A stretch of 24,000 nucleotides of DNA from an uncultured Clostridia bacterium (GCA_942493335.1 OW818693.1:1566644-1590643), one strand, 5' to 3'. Positions 2,558 through 11,098 are shown, numbered from the stretch's first letter. The notes: a model not told the origin generated them from the letters alone. A program made the numbers and translations.

Positions 2558-3337
2558 GTGCGGTTAAGCGACGTACTATCAAAACTACCTGTACTCGAAT
2601 ATAAGCAAGTTGAAGGATTCCTTGGTGTTAAGGAACTTATTAAGGGTAAACAACGAAAAATTCAAATTGGGAAAATAGCGTTAAACTATTATTGTAAAAA
2701 CTGCAATGACATCCGAACATTCTATTCTAATGATGACCTTTACTGTATCAGAGTGAATGAGCACCTTATCAGTATTGATAGTGTAATTTTCTGTCATTGT
2801 GAAGCATCAGTTCAAATATGGTTTTTAGTTGATTGTGATAGCGATATTTCTACATACGCCCCAAGTGTTCGCATAATAAATCGGACTGAAAAACTGTCAA
2901 ACAAGGTGATGCTTAACAAAGAAGAGTACGGAGTTTATTCTGAACTCCTAGAAAAGTCGCAAAGAGCATACCGCGACAGACTCGGTGCTGGCTCAATGGT
3001 ATATTTACGTAAGGTATATGAACAAATCACGGTGAATGTCGCAAATGTAGAAAATATACCTATAGTTAATGATAAAGGTAAGCCAAAACCCTTCAGACTA
3101 TTACTAGAAGAAGTTGATAAAAAAAGTAGCATTATCCCAAGAGAATTCGCTGAGAATGGATATCAATTGTTCCGCGAGCTAAGCGACGTGGTTCATGGTG
3201 AATATGACGAAGGCCTTGGTTTGATTAAGTATGAGCCCCTATATAAACTCATTATCGGGATACTTGATAACGTGAGAAAAAGTGAAGAATTACGTATTGC
3301 TATCAAGACTCTTGGTTGGACAAATAAGTCAGAATAA
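2558..3337 (+). CDS. Hypothetical protein (259 aa): N-terminal Cys cluster plus C-terminal DUF4145-like region
   Basis: GTG start 7 nt after AGGAGG. CKNCN...C...CHC is a possible zinc ribbon. The C-terminal half (RAYRDRLGAGSMVYLRKVYEQIT ... LLLEEVDKKSSIIPREF ... LFRELSDVVHGEYDE) follows the DUF4145 pattern as I recall it. Confidence 0.6.
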   Translation: MRLSDVLSKLPVLEYKQVEGFLGVKELIKGKQRKIQIGKIALNYYCKNCNDIRTFYSNDDLYCIRVNEHLISIDSVIFCHCEASVQIWFLVDCDSDISTYAPSVRIINRTEKLSNKVMLNKEEYGVYSELLEKSQRAYRDRLGAGSMVYLRKVYEQITVNVANVENIPIVNDKGKPKPFRLLLEEVDKKSSIIPREFAENGYQLFRELSDVVHGEYDEGLGLIKYEPLYKLIIGILDNVRKSEELRIAIKTLGWTNKSE

Positions 3338-3400: not shown

Positions 3401-3416
3401 GACAACGCCTGTTGTC
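3401..3416. terminator. Short hairpin between convergent genes
   Basis: gacaac-gcct-gttgtc (6-bp stem) followed by ctcgattttct. Lies between the + gene ending at 3337 and the - gene ending at 3468. Weak. Confidence 0.3.
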
Positions 3417-3467: not shown

Positions 3468-4112
3468 TTATGACCGAAGTCCATTGATTTTTTTTACAAG
3501 TTCATCTCTCCTGCGCCATTTTATAGAAAGCACATCGCAAGCTACTTCCCAGTCAGGCACATCAATGTCTTTTATTACGCTTTTCACATATGTGTGATAT
3601 GCGGCTCTGTTAAAATCCTCAATGCTCCCTTTATGGCCAACAATATCCAAAAGCTCGCTCGCTTTGATAATACCTTCAGTCAGCTTGACATTGCAGCGCC
3701 GTACATTTATGTTCAGTATCCTGTGAATCCCTCTGGGAACAACCGTGCTGATAACCTCGGCATACTTACTAATCTGCGTCGTTATGTGCTTTCGGTTATA
3801 TAGGCGATACCCAATCAACACGCCGCGATTGGCACAGGTCAAGAATGGAATCACTTCTCGCTCAGAAATGCCAAGAAGCCCAAAACGTGTCATTACCGTT
3901 CTGCAGTAAACTCCCCGTCCTATTCGCATCATCTCTCCACGGTTTATCAGCTGACTAATGGCTCGGTGGATTTGCGATGACGAACAGCCGGAATGATAAC
4001 TCTTCAAATGAGCAAGGAAAATTGGCTCTTGATACGGCAACTCAAGGAGTCTGTCGACTAGGATGATGTTTGCCAATCGTTGTTCCTCCATAAAACAAAC
4101 ATGCTCACCCAT
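3468..4112 (-). CDS. AbiEi / DUF6088-like winged-helix protein (type IV TA antitoxin-like)
   Basis: SSSQIHRAISQLINRGEMMRIGRGVYCRTVMTRFGLLGISEREVIPFL...GYRLYNRKHITTQI matches the AbiEi/DUF6088 signature (L.rL...G.l.ri.rGvY ... fG ... lgLttQ) by eye. Starts 11 nt after the JAB gene stop. An alternative start is ATG 4091. Confidence 0.65.
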   Translation of the reverse strand: MGEHVCFMEEQRLANIILVDRLLELPYQEPIFLAHLKSYHSGCSSSQIHRAISQLINRGEMMRIGRGVYCRTVMTRFGLLGISEREVIPFLTCANRGVLIGYRLYNRKHITTQISKYAEVISTVVPRGIHRILNINVRRCNVKLTEGIIKASELLDIVGHKGSIEDFNRAAYHTYVKSVIKDIDVPDWEVACDVLSIKWRRRDELVKKINGLRS

Positions 4113-4123
4113 ATGGTTAGCAA

Positions 4124-4846
4124 CTATATTTCACCAGGAATATGCTTGATTCTGCCTTTTTCGCGGACAGGCTTCCCAAATCGTGAGTATTCTTCAGCAA
4201 CTGCAAAAGCAGAAGGACAATCAAGAAAAACGCGTTCATCATCATGAGCGGAAATCCGCAGATTACCTTTATCATCCTTTTTCGCGACGTATGCAGAAAT
4301 CCATATCCTATACCGGTTCAGAGTAAACACAATAGCGCTATTCCGAATTGCTTCCGCAGGTTTCGTACCTCTTCTCTTCAGCTCACATATAGTAACAGCT
4401 ATGCCAACTCGGTACTTGTGTTCAATCCAGTAGTCAGAATTGCCTTCAATGTGAAGATAATCTTCCTCAGAGAAATCATAACCCTCAATCGATTCAACCT
4501 CATGGATATCCTTATATGGATGGGTGTGAAAGTCGCCCAAACACTCGTACTGCGGCCAAAATGACGTAAGGATGTCCCGTTTTAGGCTAATCGACTCTTC
4601 CTTTGGATAACATGAGCCTGTATTCCTAACAGTTGAAGTATCGACGGTTACCATGTCCACACTGTACAGAACGTCATTTCTGGGAAGGTGAACTTCATGG
4701 CCGAGAAGGAGCCCGTATGTCTCAAGCTCATTTGCCTTCTTCAGATTTCTTCCGTGTGGAACACAATATGCCTCAAGGCCACTTAAGCACAATTGAATCA
4801 ATGCATTCTCTGATATTCTGATGTAATAGTTAGGCTCATTTCGCAT
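4124..4846 (-). CDS. JAB/MPN (JAMM) metalloprotease-domain protein, 240 aa
   Basis: ELETYGLLLG (upstream Glu) plus FHTHPY...FSEEDY gives an HxH ... S-x-x-D JAMM motif. The spacer is longer than canonical (16 rather than 7 residues). Lies 53 nt downstream of hsdR on the same strand. Confidence 0.8.
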   Translation of the reverse strand: MRNEPNYYIRISENALIQLCLSGLEAYCVPHGRNLKKANELETYGLLLGHEVHLPRNDVLYSVDMVTVDTSTVRNTGSCYPKEESISLKRDILTSFWPQYECLGDFHTHPYKDIHEVESIEGYDFSEEDYLHIEGNSDYWIEHKYRVGIAVTICELKRRGTKPAEAIRNSAIVFTLNRYRIWISAYVAKKDDKGNLRISAHDDERVFLDCPSAFAVAEEYSRFGKPVREKGRIKHIPGEI

Positions 4847-4899
4847 ATGCTACCCCGTCAAAACCCATTGAAGGTATACGTCTATCCATAACAATCTCT

Positions 4900-7800
4900 T
4901 CACCCAATACCGAAGAACTTCTCGAAAAAGCGCTCAAGGATAGACGCAATCTTGTCCTTGATTGATTTACGCTTCCCGCCAAACCGTGAGACTGGAGGCA
5001 TGATTGCATCAAACTCCATGCCCGTCACCTTCAATACGCCATCCTTCATGGCATTGTCGATATAACGGCGGGTCTCTTCCGGCTTCAGGTTTTCTGCCGT
5101 GATGATTTCGACAAGTTCCTTCTCCTTTTTTTCCGCAACATGCTGTTTCCAACTGCCCCGAACATCTCCGACGGAGTTCACCGTCGCGATAAACGATTCG
5201 ATGAGGTCTTTCTTACTGCGGAGTTGGATGCTTGAATCAATGGCTCGGTCGATGGCAGCCAAGGCTTCCTTATCCTTGCAGTTCGATTTGTGGTATTTCT
5301 CAATCAACGCAAGGATGTAATCGATATTTATTTCAATTTGCCGAATCAACTCGATTTCAAACTCGATGTCATCGTTAATGTTTTCTTTTCCCTCGCCCCT
5401 ATCCCTGACAAAGTTCTGATAAATGTCAATGTAGCGGCTTTGATAATCCTGTAGGTCACGTTCCGTCAAAAGCTCGTTTCCAATGAATTCATCAAAAGTG
5501 GCAAGGATGTTGCGCATCTTCAGGATGGACCCGAACAGCTTAACGAAATCCTTCTGGTTTTGCTCGCCAATCAAGGTCGAAGTCAGCGGAAATCTGCCCA
5601 GCAATGTGTTTACGAGGGTTTCATACCCCTCATGATAAACACCCTTTTCGTCAAAGCCTTTGTAGTACGCTTCGTATGGCTTCAAAAGAATAATGCCCCC
5701 TGCGTCCTTGTCTCCAAAAAGCGACAGTGCCTCATCCGTTTCGTCTTGGAGATTCCTGAAACAAATAATGTTCCCGTAGGTTTTTACGGAGTTCAAAATC
5801 CGGTTTGTTCGGGAAAAGGCTTGCAACAGTCCATGATGTTTCAGGTTTTTGTCGACCCAAAGTGTGTTGAGCGTTGTTGCATCAAAGCCTGTGAGAAAAA
5901 TGTTGACGACAATAACCATGTCGACTTCCCGGGACTTGATACGCATGGACAGGTCTTTGTAGTAGTTCTCAAATCGGTCTGCGTCTGTACAAAAATTTGT
6001 GTTGAAGATTGTGTTGTAGTCCCTAATTGCCGCTTCAAGAAAATCACGCGAAGTCTTGTCGAGCGCATCCGTATCGAATTCCTCATCCGGGAGGGAATCG
6101 TTCGGGTCCTCCTCATTTTGCGCAAAGCTGAAAATTGTTGCAATGGTTAGTTGTTGGCCCGATTCCGCAAGCTGCTTTTTGAACTCAGCATAGTACATTT
6201 TGGCCATCTTGATAGAGCTGACCGCAAAGATAGAGTTGAACCCCATGACGCGCTTGCCCTTAAGCGAATACGCGCTGTTTCGTCGCGTTTTCTGGTCAAA
6301 ATGCTCAAGGATATACTTGGACACCTCTCGAACTCTCACAGGCGATTCCATGGCATGTTCCCTGTCAATGGCGTGGACCTGTTTGTCCTTGATTCCCGCC
6401 TTTTCCTTGATGGTGTTCGTGTAGTCGACCTTGAATGGTAAAACGTTCTGGTCGTTTATGGCATCAATAATGGTGTAGGAGTGGAGCTTGGCACCAAATA
6501 GAGATTCCGTTGTTTTGATGACTGAATCCTTGCGTACAGCGTTTTTGGCGTAAATGGGCGTCCCGGTAAACCCAAACAGATAGTAGTTCTTGAATGCATC
6601 GGTAATTTGCTTGTGCATGTCACCAAACTGGGAACGATGGCATTCATCAAAGATGATGACCACCTGCTTGTTAAAGACAGCATGCCCCTTGTTCCGCCTG
6701 ATGAACATATCCATCTTTTGAATGGTCGTGATGATAATGTGGGCGTCGGGGTTGGCCAGCTGCTTCTGAAGCACCTTGGTTGAGGTGTTGCCGTTTGCTG
6801 CCCCCTTCTCAAATTTGTCATACTCTTTCATCGTCTGATAGTCCAAATCTTTCCTATCGACGACAAACAGGACTTTGTCGATGAATGGCAGCCCTGCGGC
6901 CAACTGAGCAGTTTTGTAGGATGTCAGTGTTTTCCCACTACCCGTAGAGTGGGAGCAATACCCACCTGCGTCAATGGTGCCTGCCTTCTTGTAGTTGTGG
7001 GAGATGTTGATTTTATTGATAATCTTCTCTGTCGCCGCTATCTGATAGGGCCGGAGCACAAGCAACAGGTTCTCGACGGTAAACACGCAATACCTTGTCA
7101 GGATGTTCAACAAGGTATGCCTAGAGAAGAATGTCTTTGTGAAATCAACAAGGTCGTCAATTCGACGATTCTTCTCATCTGCCCAGAACGAGGTGAATTC
7201 ATAACTGTTACTGGTCTTCTTGCTTTTCTCCTTTGATGCCGTGGCAAGCTCCCTCACGTGGCTATCGCGGGTTGTGTTGGAATAGTATTTTGTCGACGTT
7301 CCATTGGAGATGACAAACAACTGAACATACTCATACAGACCGTTTGAGGCCCAGAAACTGTCGCGCTGGTATCGGTTGATTTGATTGAACGCTTCCCGGA
7401 GCGCGATTCCTCTCCGCTTCAACTCAAAATGGACAAGAGGCAGTCCATTGACCAAAATTGTAACATCATATCTGGTATTGTGGGCCCCTTCACTTTCCTG
7501 GTACTGGTTGAGAACCTGCAACTGGTTGTTATGGACCATTTTCTTGTCGATGAGCATAATGTTCTTACTCGTGCCATCATCTCGCTTGAGAAGTTGAATG
7601 TGGTCGACCTGAATCTTGCGGGTCTTCTCAACAATCCCCTCCGTCGAGTTCGAGATGCATTCCTTGTAGAAGCGGGTCCACTCATCGTCAGAAAATGTAA
7701 AATCATTCAGCAACTCAAGCTGCTTTCTCAGATTCGTAATCATCTCTTGCGAGTTGTGAATCGTCGCATACTCATATCCCTGTGACACGAGCTGTTTGAT

Positions 7801-7917
7801 AAACTCGCGTTCAAGGTCTGCCTCGCTTTGATAGGACGTTTGACGAGTCTGGGATGGCTCATATTCCGTTACTACTGTTTTCTCGTCAGTCGAGGCGACC
7901 ACATGATAAACTTTCAT
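4900..7917 (-). CDS. hsdR: Type I restriction enzyme R subunit (helicase/endonuclease), 1005 aa
   Basis: SF2 helicase motifs: STGSGKTLTS (Walker A), FDECHRS (DEAH-type motif II), FTGTP. Size and position immediately after hsdS fit. AAGGAG RBS. Confidence 0.95.
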   Translation of the reverse strand: MKVYHVVASTDEKTVVTEYEPSQTRQTSYQSEADLEREFIKQLVSQGYEYATIHNSQEMITNLRKQLELLNDFTFSDDEWTRFYKECISNSTEGIVEKTRKIQVDHIQLLKRDDGTSKNIMLIDKKMVHNNQLQVLNQYQESEGAHNTRYDVTILVNGLPLVHFELKRRGIALREAFNQINRYQRDSFWASNGLYEYVQLFVISNGTSTKYYSNTTRDSHVRELATASKEKSKKTSNSYEFTSFWADEKNRRIDDLVDFTKTFFSRHTLLNILTRYCVFTVENLLLVLRPYQIAATEKIINKINISHNYKKAGTIDAGGYCSHSTGSGKTLTSYKTAQLAAGLPFIDKVLFVVDRKDLDYQTMKEYDKFEKGAANGNTSTKVLQKQLANPDAHIIITTIQKMDMFIRRNKGHAVFNKQVVIIFDECHRSQFGDMHKQITDAFKNYYLFGFTGTPIYAKNAVRKDSVIKTTESLFGAKLHSYTIIDAINDQNVLPFKVDYTNTIKEKAGIKDKQVHAIDREHAMESPVRVREVSKYILEHFDQKTRRNSAYSLKGKRVMGFNSIFAVSSIKMAKMYYAEFKKQLAESGQQLTIATIFSFAQNEEDPNDSLPDEEFDTDALDKTSRDFLEAAIRDYNTIFNTNFCTDADRFENYYKDLSMRIKSREVDMVIVVNIFLTGFDATTLNTLWVDKNLKHHGLLQAFSRTNRILNSVKTYGNIICFRNLQDETDEALSLFGDKDAGGIILLKPYEAYYKGFDEKGVYHEGYETLVNTLLGRFPLTSTLIGEQNQKDFVKLFGSILKMRNILATFDEFIGNELLTERDLQDYQSRYIDIYQNFVRDRGEGKENINDDIEFEIELIRQIEINIDYILALIEKYHKSNCKDKEALAAIDRAIDSSIQLRSKKDLIESFIATVNSVGDVRGSWKQHVAEKKEKELVEIITAENLKPEETRRYIDNAMKDGVLKVTGMEFDAIMPPVSRFGGKRKSIKDKIASILERFFEKFFGIG

Positions 7918-7929
7918 TCGTACTCCTTC

Positions 7930-9180
7930 TCACATCGCCTTTTCAAAGGAAAGCAGTTTGTCTCTGTAGTATTCGTACTGCTGCTGCCGTGCTTCTATTT
8001 CGGCGGGCAGACCCGTCGTCAAATCATTGCAGAGCAAATCAAATTGGTCGAGGATGCGGACTATTTCTTCCTGAATGGGGAGAGGGGGAACGAGAACAGG
8101 TACGCGAGCTATAGAATTACTCATTAACTTTGGGTTGCCCATCCCGGGACTAACATAGTCCTTAACAATTGACTGGAGCCAATAGAACAGAAAACGGGTA
8201 CATAATTCTGTAGGGATAGACACGCTTAAGAGGCCACATACATTTGTAATGCTGAATTTCTCGTTCGAATGGAAGAATACAGACCCTGCATTTGCGCCAT
8301 CAGTCGTCCATGTGATAGATTCAAAGTCATAATCATAATTGTCAATGTATCCGAATATTCCGTTGTTCAATGTCTGCGATGAGTACACTGGATAAACTCC
8401 AGCATTAGCTCGAAGATAGTCTTTTGACATAACGCGCCCACGAGTTATCATACACATCTCGTCAAGATTTTTATACTCCACCCCATCCGGGCATAACTCA
8501 TCAATCAGTTTCCGAATCGTCCCAGTCTTCCTCTGCAGACCTTCTTCCGAAAAATCAAGCATCTTATTTTGATAATACTCATACTGCTGCTTGCGAGCCG
8601 TCCGCTCCGCGTTTAGCTCCGCCTTCAATTCCGTTGTCAACTCCGTGAATGTGTCGAGGATGCGGACAATTTCTTCCTGAATGGAGAGAGGGGGGATGGG
8701 GATTTCAATTGCCTTTATTGCTGGTACACTTGAATGAACGACTTTGCTCTTCACTTTACCAGCACTCTTATGTTTTTGTGCATCTGCTGTCGACAGGACA
8801 TACGAAAGATACTTAGGGTTCTGATTATGCTTCAGTACAACCATGTCGCCGCCAGCCAAACACTTTTCATGGCCAACGTACGCTGTTGACTTAGCGATAT
8901 CCGCCACGTTTTCTCCCGTTATAGCAAATAAAATGTCACCGTGCTCGAAATATTTCGGATTTTGAATGGCGGCTTCTTCAGTGTGTGAAACACACTCATC
9001 AAACCATATCCCATATGTTGTATAAATTTCCCCATACCGGACACAGGAAATCCCATATGGGACTACCTGGTCTCGCGTGATTCCCGAACCCCGATAAACA
9101 TCGGTAGCGATTTCTCCAATAGCTTTTATCTCTACCCCATCGGGGCACAGCTCCGCAATCAGTTCTTCAATCCTGCTCAT
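7930..9180 (-). CDS. hsdS: Type I restriction enzyme specificity subunit, two TRDs
   Basis: Two-fold internal architecture. Each half begins (I/L)xELCPDGVE(I/Y)K and ends with the conserved spacer (L/P)(S/P)IQEEIVRILD...QQYEYY. ATGA overlap with the hsdM stop (9177-9180). Confidence 0.95.
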   Translation of the reverse strand: MSRIEELIAELCPDGVEIKAIGEIATDVYRGSGITRDQVVPYGISCVRYGEIYTTYGIWFDECVSHTEEAAIQNPKYFEHGDILFAITGENVADIAKSTAYVGHEKCLAGGDMVVLKHNQNPKYLSYVLSTADAQKHKSAGKVKSKVVHSSVPAIKAIEIPIPPLSIQEEIVRILDTFTELTTELKAELNAERTARKQQYEYYQNKMLDFSEEGLQRKTGTIRKLIDELCPDGVEYKNLDEMCMITRGRVMSKDYLRANAGVYPVYSSQTLNNGIFGYIDNYDYDFESITWTTDGANAGSVFFHSNEKFSITNVCGLLSVSIPTELCTRFLFYWLQSIVKDYVSPGMGNPKLMSNSIARVPVLVPPLPIQEEIVRILDQFDLLCNDLTTGLPAEIEARQQQYEYYRDKLLSFEKAM

Positions 9181-10799: not shown

Positions 10800-10827
10800 A
10801 TTCTATCCGTATTCTTCCATTGGTCAA
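10800..10827 (-). promoter_or_regulatory. Predicted sigma-70-type promoter of the R-M operon
   Basis: On the minus strand: TTGACC (10827-10822), 16 nt, TAGAAT (10805-10800), about 55 nt upstream of the hsdM ATG. A second TTGACA lies at 10839-10834. Confidence 0.45.
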
Positions 10828-10859
10828 CACAGATGTCAACCTACTTCTCCTCTTTTCCG

Positions 10860-10994: not shown

Positions 10995-11057
10995 TCCGAA
11001 TCCTCACTTAACATTCGTCTCGAAGGACAACCAATGTTTCAGGCACTGATATTAGCA

Positions 11058-11098
11058 AACAGAAAGCTGCTCTACATCAAATGGAGCAGCCTTCTGTT
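11058..11098 (-). terminator. Strong hairpin terminator downstream of the decayed gene
   Basis: aacagaaagctgctc (11058-11072) and gagcagccttctgtt (11084-11098) form a 15-bp stem with one mismatch and an 11-nt loop. Lies about 20 nt after the TAA at 11119-11117 on the minus strand. Confidence 0.6.

Follow-up and report, generated by a model that had tools for sequence, protein, structure and literature searches.

To our knowledge, the JAB proteases of bacterial defence characterised so far all work inside ubiquitin-like conjugation operons, and those of Cap3 in the cyclic-oligonucleotide-based antiphage signalling system (CBASS), of the Bil system and of the 6A-MBL E2/E1/JAB fusion are, as far as we know, always encoded with E1/E2 and a cyclase, a ubiquitin-like protein or an effector. 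For the RadC-type JAB domains of mobile elements, an action on nucleic acids in place of ubiquitin tails has been proposed (PMC5512222), and the fusion of RAMA with JAB is known in eukaryotes only (PMC4738411). Type I restriction-modification (R-M) operons can carry additional genes; in enteropathogenic Escherichia coli (EPEC), DarTG2 and the regulator RptR ride on such a locus (PMC12255303). Proteolytic control of the restriction subunit HsdR is established for EcoKI (PMC4231737). Here we analyse a stretch of 24,000 nucleotides from an uncultured Clostridia bacterium (GCA_942493335.1, OW818693.1:1566644-1590643; the whole stretch is referred to as the window), in which a gene for a JAB/MPN+ metallopeptidase and a gene for an AbiEi/DUF6088-family winged helix-turn-helix (wHTH) protein follow hsdR of a type I R-M operon.

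An earlier note on this DNA, made from the sequence alone, had suggested that the two genes form a backup module linked to the R-M operon, with the JAB protease in the place of the AbiEii toxin. We favour a different reading, with a probability of about 0.55, namely that the position after hsdR is a variable slot within a defence island, which holds the JAB and AbiEi-like genes as separate accessory cargo and not as a dedicated pair, the JAB protein being a solitary enzyme and the AbiEi-like protein an orphan.

The JAB and AbiEi-like genes are not a conserved pair

About 95 JAB loci were surveyed, comprising 40 from genomes, 43 from metagenomes, 14 contigs from look-ups of eight homologues, and a metagenome contig designated L050. 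When an AbiEi neighbour of JAB was sought by tblastn in the 40 genome loci and by phmmer in the about 95 loci, L050 alone was positive. This contig was reached via the AbiEi homologue P0047 and is 80% identical to the window at the DNA level over 2130 bp, a stretch that spans the 3' part of hsdR, JAB and the AbiEi-like gene; the convergent cassette beyond is also shared. L050 is therefore the same, syntenic locus in a relative and does not count as independent evidence of pairing. Approached from the other gene, the AbiEi family was found in 23 of 400 sampled genomes of the phylum, at 24 loci, with a BLAST-detectable AbiEii gene directly downstream in 19 of these and a JAB gene in none. JAB and AbiEi are not a conserved pair, and the proposal that they form a module, which supposed that they stay neighbours elsewhere, is not upheld.

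Both genes are under purifying selection, with a dN/dS of 0.07 for JAB and 0.20 for the AbiEi-like gene between the window and L050 (dS about 0.9-1.0); the corresponding value for the C-terminal part of hsdR is 0.02. At L050:1-1700, compared with window positions 4900-7917, hsdR is shrunk to a 246-aa open reading frame (ORF) that contains EcoR124_C only and is 91% identical. The DNA similarity between L050 and the window begins abruptly at window position 5651, and a BubE-domain gene lies upstream in L050. Recombination broke within hsdR and left JAB and the AbiEi-like gene of L050 intact.

A variable slot after hsdR

The closest HsdR orthologues (61-64% identity) are encoded upstream of Mrr, of a 119-aa protein of unknown function or of nothing, and an orthologue with 50% identity is followed by a 256-aa protein of unknown function. 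Because the genes after hsdR differ among its closest orthologues, the position is a variable cargo site. The Mrr-type type IV restriction gene follows hsdR of the closest orthologue (64% identity) at L132:461-1375. Neither the JAB nor the AbiEi-like gene was found in 60 relatives of the source genome, six same-genus genomes included, and hsdR was likewise not found in same-genus genomes; the whole region is accessory. For annotation, this counsels caution, in that adjacency at the 3' end of hsdR should not be read as a functional link.

Two observations weigh against reading the genes as unpaired cargo with a part in genetic conflict. L050 keeps JAB and AbiEi together though the DNA has changed on both sides, a pattern also expected of a functional unit but seen in a single comparison, and several JAB loci sit among metabolic genes, so that a conflict role is not universal.

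A solitary JAB/MPN+ protein with a long motif spacer

The JAB protein of 240 aa carries the JAMM motifs ETYGLLLG (E42), FHTHPY (H107 and H109) and FSEED (S126 and D129). In an alignment of 28 of the 44 homologues found, E42, H107, H109, P110, S126 and D129 are invariant, and among 161 JAB representatives E42 is retained in 160, H107 in all 161, H109 in 159, S126 in 160 and D129 in 159. Classical JAMM/MPN+ enzymes have a spacer of about 7-10 residues between the HxH motif and the serine. The spacer from H109 to S126 in the window JAB has 16 residues, and the distance between the second histidine and the serine ranges from 14 to 34 residues across the 161 representatives, with a mode of 16. The long spacer is a trait of the JAB family. 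The motifs and the unusual spacing recorded in the earlier note are thus borne out, and the active-site residues are conserved in homologues (28 of 28 aligned, and at least 159 of 161 representatives).

An AlphaFold2 model of the JAB protein, built from the 28-homologue alignment, reached a pLDDT of 90.7 and a pTM of 0.89. Its best Foldseek matches in the PDB were an archaeal Rpn11 homologue, BRCC36, Rpn11 and CSN5, with E values of 5e-7 to 1e-5, a probability of 1.00, TM scores of 0.4-0.5 and alignments of 190-250 columns, and a search of a library of viral structures returned just two MPN-type proteins at E <= 0.001. Judged from this model and the aligned residues, the protein is a JAB/MPN+ fold with its predicted catalytic residues intact. 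Sequence models recognise it poorly. Against Pfam Prok-JAB it scored 13.4 bits (E 0.07), below the cut-off of 25; the PADLOC JAB models gave E values of 0.02-0.05 only; and NCBIfam gave zero matches. Weak Pfam JAB matches were obtained for just 4 of 28 family members, and none of the Pfam, NCBIfam and PADLOC models scores the family reliably. Searching PDB sequences with the JAB alignment profile yielded nothing useful, and fold searches alone were informative. A Pfam RadC match was absent from the window JAB and from the 28 family members scanned.

A word-indexed search gave the 44 JAB homologues, none of them informatively named (where named, "hypothetical" or "uncharacterized"), from Caloranaerobacter, Desulfosporosinus, Symbiobacteriaceae, Desulfotomaculaceae and metagenomes. 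When 1.84 billion representatives were searched exhaustively with a profile, 431 clusters were returned at E <= 0.001 and 318 at <= 1e-10. Since nearly all of the 150 representatives listed span 200-260 aa, the members are single-domain proteins and not fusions. As far as these searches tell, the JAB family is small, sharply bounded, single-domain and unnamed. The 40 genome loci, from a scan of one genome per species, belong to Bacillota, Desulfobacterota, Patescibacteria, Alpha- and Gammaproteobacteria, Myxococcota, Planctomycetota and Acidobacteriota, and JAB was not found in the 400 other sampled genomes of the phylum of the source genome. The family is rare and sporadic, yet spread over many phyla. 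JAB was also not found in a scan of viral contigs, and the reading of JAB as a phage gene was dropped on that result.

No gene recurs beside JAB across clades in an all-against-all comparison of the flanks by BLAST and phmmer, clusters being found solely within syntenic sets, and a Pfam and PADLOC tally of 117 flanking ORFs gave no family with more than three members. Several loci were checked for a small ubiquitin-like ORF ending in Gly-Gly next to JAB, and none had one; no ubiquitin-like, E1 or sulfur-carrier gene recurs near JAB in the surveyed flanks. From these neighbourhoods the protein appears to work alone, normally without a fixed neighbour.

By the chemistry of the wider family, H107, H109 and D129 would hold the zinc ion, E42 would activate water and S126 would stabilise the intermediate. 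The predicted reaction is cleavage of a peptide or isopeptide bond, on a substrate whose gene does not adjoin that of the enzyme; because it is nearly always found without a fixed neighbour, the enzyme would act as a self-contained unit. JAB is probably a self-contained and apparently active zinc peptidase. A bolder proposal, possible though rather improbable, makes this solitary long-spacer MPN+ protease a single-gene conflict system, located in defence islands and repeatedly by type I hsdR, which would protect against phage alone or tune neighbouring defence enzymes by cleaving a protein tail of phage or host origin; in this lineage it would have gained the toxin-less AbiEi as its regulator.

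An orphan protein of the AbiEi/DUF6088 family

The PADLOC AbiEi model PDLC02251 matches the product of the 214-aa ORF at 1.7e-37, with 17 other AbiEi models weaker, and Pfam AbiEi_4 matches its wHTH at 0.0018. Its relatives share 29-35% identity, and three of them are annotated with Pfam DUF6088; those aligned show no variation in the motifs RIxRGVY, TRFG, GYRLYN and TTQISK. The AlphaFold2 model is good from residue 90 on and of low confidence at the N-terminus. The top two Foldseek targets of the model are the solved AbiEi antitoxins 6Y8Q and 1ZEL, which supply all four hits with E <0.01, and the alignment profile gave nothing useful against PDB sequences. By profile, homologues and fold, the protein is a member of the AbiEi/DUF6088 family, and the profile search does not reassign it away from the family named in the earlier note.

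In L050, an in-frame TAG bars an earlier start of the AbiEi-like gene, and a TTG start follows GGAGGA after seven nucleotides. The window carries the same GGAGGA-N7-TTG arrangement. From this comparison, the window protein probably has 202 aa and its gene its own ribosome-binding site behind a spacer of 47 nt. The gap of 11 nt given in the earlier note holds for the longest ORF, which starts at an ATG, and not for this likely start. The gene call on record for the genome (P0046) is 153 aa long and omits the winged-helix part.

In canonical AbiEi relatives, the AbiEii gene (PF08843) either overlaps that of AbiEi or comes immediately after it, and the statement that AbiEi-type proteins are normally paired with AbiEii agrees with the 19 of 24 sampled loci. 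No AbiEii was found in the window or in the whole 4.9-Mb single-contig genome, so that the missing partner noted earlier is absent genome-wide as well as from the adjacent position, and the window protein, which is the sole copy in its genome, is an orphan of the antitoxin type. In both the window protein and its L050 orthologue, the C-terminal tail that the canonical proteins carry, about 25 residues long, is missing as well. The AbiEi-like protein would most likely be a DNA-binding regulator acting through its N-terminal winged helix, or would confer immunity against incoming AbiEii toxins.

These features bear on the view, which we consider unlikely, that JAB and AbiEi are a working two-gene unit in this lineage, an R-M-linked abortive-infection or toxin-antitoxin module in which AbiEi would regulate or neutralise a JAB that replaced the lost AbiEii. 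The genes are adjacent and co-directional, with a spacer that contains no terminator-like site; both are retained in L050 despite its rearranged flanks; both are under purifying selection; AbiEi is maintained with no AbiEii anywhere in the genome; and loss of its C-terminal tail could mean a changed partner. However, of the about 95 JAB loci only the one in a syntenic relative has the pair, and none of the 24 AbiEi loci has it. Nearly all JAB loci are without an antitoxin-like neighbour, which makes it unlikely that JAB itself is toxic, and placing the putative toxin first reverses the canonical AbiE order. The gap is also probably not a translationally coupled one of 11 nt but one of 47 nt, the AbiEi-like gene having a ribosome-binding site to itself.

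Genomic contexts of the JAB family

JAB lies beside type I R-M genes in five independent contexts, the window with L050, L042, L044, L055 and L019. The window and L050 encode an HsdR of the EcoR124_C type. L042, from Caloranaerobacter, has the order hsdR, YgjP, JAB, and L044 the order hsdR, YgjP, a 98-aa ORF, JAB and then Pycsar. In L055, an hsdR-hsdM-hsdS operon with an EcoEI_R_C-type HsdR is divergent from JAB, and in L019, where HsdR was identified solely by similarity to that of L055, the hsdR-hsdM-hsdS operon is convergent with JAB, which lies at its distal, hsdS end. Three types of HsdR C-terminal domain (EcoR124_C, T1RH-like_C and EcoEI_R_C) occur in the four contexts that could be typed by Pfam. 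JAB is on the hsdR side in all but L019, and three contexts have it after hsdR in the same orientation. The YgjP-like metallopeptidase genes (PF01863) between hsdR and JAB are located at L042:5219-5932 and L044:3877-4590, which places two different predicted peptidases after hsdR in these loci.

Further JAB neighbours linked to defence or mobile elements include HEPN_AbiV (L047); an LmuB_C-domain protein with CTD7 and MC3 proteins (L057); DarT and DarG with a PD-(D/E)XK protein (L004); GmrSD (L091); WYL regulators (L059 and L108); ArdC (L111); and Rhs toxins, integrases and XRE regulators (L056). Contexts without a defence signal contain sugar-acid genes, an aldolase-like gene, a histidine kinase or Mfd. 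By our count, about 20 JAB contexts are independent, and at least 11 of them belong to defence islands or mobile elements. Because JAB is patchily distributed and often sits in such islands and elements, its role would most likely lie in conflict with phages or mobile elements, and the family is, on these neighbourhoods, a reasonable candidate for defence islands.

A non-defence cellular role, such as the trimming of a ThiS/MoaD-like carrier or of another protein tail encoded elsewhere, with island placement incidental, would fit the many loci flanked by metabolic or regulatory genes (altronate dehydratase, aldolase-like, aminotransferases, histidine kinase and Mfd) and the absence of the family from the viral contigs scanned. 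We regard it as distinctly unlikely, since JAB occurs in 0 of 460 other sampled genomes (relatives and phylum), which fits an accessory gene better than a housekeeping one, since at least half of its independent contexts are defence islands or mobile elements, and since no ubiquitin-like, E1 or sulfur-carrier gene recurs nearby.

The looser link of JAB to type I R-M is supported in part, in that JAB recurs beside such systems in the five independent contexts, which are a minority of its contexts. By analogy with the ClpXP control of HsdR, JAB could be a type I restriction accessory that processes or removes HsdR or a partner, in restriction alleviation or in turnover of the complex. In favour of this are the four contexts with JAB on the hsdR side, the three in which it follows hsdR in the same direction, the variety of HsdR C-terminal domains involved, and the proteolytic control established for EcoKI HsdR (PMC4231737). 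The majority of JAB loci, however, are without type I genes in the examined flanks, JAB survives beside a truncated hsdR in L050, and L042 and L044 already have the YgjP-like metallopeptidase between hsdR and JAB. As hsdR is also an operon-edge gene, where cargo tends to gather, we hold a dedicated restriction accessory to be quite improbable.

That the two ORFs are functionless, decaying remnants, as the AbiEi without toxin and C-terminal tail and one frameshifted metagenomic JAB copy (L091) might suggest, is scarcely credible given two intact reading frames, dN/dS values of 0.07 and 0.20 at a dS of about 0.9-1.0, and intact JAB catalytic residues.

Several JAB loci have further features. The frameshifted copy, at L091:4787-5572, is split in two frames (105 and 148 aa), probably a pseudogene, and has the GmrSD-type restriction gene and a DUF7662/DUF1653 protein immediately upstream. 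At L044:5739-6821, and likewise in L045 and L046, about 1.06 kb of AT-rich DNA that is ORF-free in every frame separates JAB from a Pycsar-like pair of cyclase and PycTM. A 242-aa ORF of no assigned family (L059:4774-5502, and also in L101) overlaps the start of JAB by about 20 nt and is preceded by a 736-aa AAA ATPase and a divergent WYL/WCX regulator; it may form, with JAB, a separate lineage-specific module.

Organization of the locus

The type I R-M operon of the window is complete, with hsdM, hsdS and hsdR all detected by Pfam and PADLOC (Table 1). Read along the minus strand, the operon runs hsdM-hsdS-hsdR; the 240-aa JAB ORF begins after a gap of 53 nt, and the 214-aa AbiEi-like ORF comes next, the order that had been described earlier.

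Table 1. Features of the type I R-M operon and its downstream genes in the window
Feature	Position	Strand	Basis
hsdM, type I methyltransferase, 522 aa	9177-10745	-	Pfam N6_Mtase (4.8e-104) and HsdM_N; PADLOC MTase_I (6.7e-123)
hsdS, specificity subunit, 416 aa, two target-recognition domains	7930-9180	-	Pfam Methylase_S in two stretches; PADLOC Specificity_I (2.5e-105)
hsdR, full-length restriction subunit, 1005 aa, EcoR124_C-type C-terminus	4900-7917	-	Pfam HSDR_N, SWI2_SNF2/ResIII, T1R_D3-like and EcoR124_C; PADLOC REase_I (1161 bits)
hsdR-JAB spacer, 53 nt	4847-4899	-	Scan: no promoter-like or terminator-like minus-strand site
JAB/MPN+ (JAMM) metallopeptidase, solitary type, 240 aa	4124-4846	-	Alignments, AlphaFold2 model, Foldseek, dN/dS
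JAB-AbiEi spacer, probably 47 nt, with GGAGGA Shine-Dalgarno sequence at 4084-4089	4077-4123	-	Comparison with L050
AbiEi/DUF6088-family wHTH protein, orphan, probably 202 aa	3468-4076 (TTG 4076)	-	PADLOC, alignment, Foldseek
AbiEi-like gene as longest ORF, 214 aa	3468-4112 (ATG 4112)	-	ORF call
Sole hairpin between AbiEi-like gene and convergent plus-strand cassette	3401-3416	.	T-run on plus strand; terminator-like on that strand only

A consensus scan of the minus strand found no sigma-70-like promoter between the genes. For the autorepression of AbiE systems, in which AbiEi binds inverted repeats of its own promoter, the scan thus gave no candidate promoter ahead of the AbiEi-like gene. The single terminator-like match on that strand (3837-3823) is weak, has a 5-pair stem and lies within the AbiEi coding sequence, and the count of terminator-like matches did not exceed the level in shuffled sequences. 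No recognisable terminator separates the genes, in agreement with the earlier note. Transcription of JAB and the AbiEi-like gene probably comes from read-through of the hsd operon, and the AbiEi-like gene would be translated from its own ribosome-binding site.

Upstream of hsdM, a TTGACA-N6-TTGACC direct repeat on the minus strand at window positions 10800-10850 lies about 80-100 nt before the start codon, and a hairpin terminator is found farther upstream, at about 11050-11095. The hsd operon probably has its promoter in this region. On the other side, a 259-aa ORF without a family match (2558-3337) is convergent with the AbiEi-like gene. A DUF6979 gene replaces this ORF in L050, and this boundary is therefore also a swap point.

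Comparison with known systems

The window JAB shares its fold and the E...HxH...S..D zinc site with the JAMM/MPN+ deubiquitinase type, represented by Rpn11, CSN5, BRCC36, AMSH and the archaeal Rpn11 homologue 6FNN. It differs from this type in its 16-residue spacer, which departs from the canonical short distance between HxH and SxxD, and in having no ubiquitin-like substrate, MPN- partner or E1/E2 gene nearby. With the RadC-type JAB of mobile elements it has in common a stand-alone JAB fold on mobile DNA, but its best structural matches are peptidase-type MPN domains. A link between RAMA and JAB in R-M contexts was considered and rejected, the fusion being eukaryotic only (PMC4738411) and the window JAB without a RAMA match.

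Like other loci in which extra defence-related genes are carried on a type I R-M operon (PrrC in EcoprrI, DarTG2 and RptR in EPEC, and the YgjP-like gene after hsdR), the window has such genes on its operon. Its extra genes lie after hsdR, in contrast to the anticodon nuclease gene of PrrC type inside the hsd locus. They have no homology to the anticodon nuclease, DarT or RptR, and JAB and AbiEi are not conserved with the operon. Regulation of the RptR type (PMC12255303) was set aside as a precedent only, with no homology in the window genes.

CBASS Cap3, the Bil-system JAB and the 6A-MBL fusion resemble the window JAB in placing a JAB domain in defence islands, and the window family differs from them in its lack of a conserved partner. 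A catalytically intact, solitary and very patchy JAB clade that is often found in defence islands would need another logic, with the substrate supplied in trans by a phage or by another system. With the AbiE type IV toxin-antitoxin and abortive-infection systems, the window locus shares a protein of the AbiEi family by profile, homologues and fold, and it differs from them in the absence of AbiEii and of the AbiEi tail of about 25 aa, and in having JAB as the upstream gene. Toxin-less yet conserved, this AbiEi is a clean case in which to study the role of an orphan antitoxin, be it regulation or anti-addiction immunity. The fold, its chemistry and the AbiEi family are known from described systems; the orphan state of AbiEi is unusual, and the JAB clade is unnamed and structurally distinctive in its long spacer and its independence of a partner.

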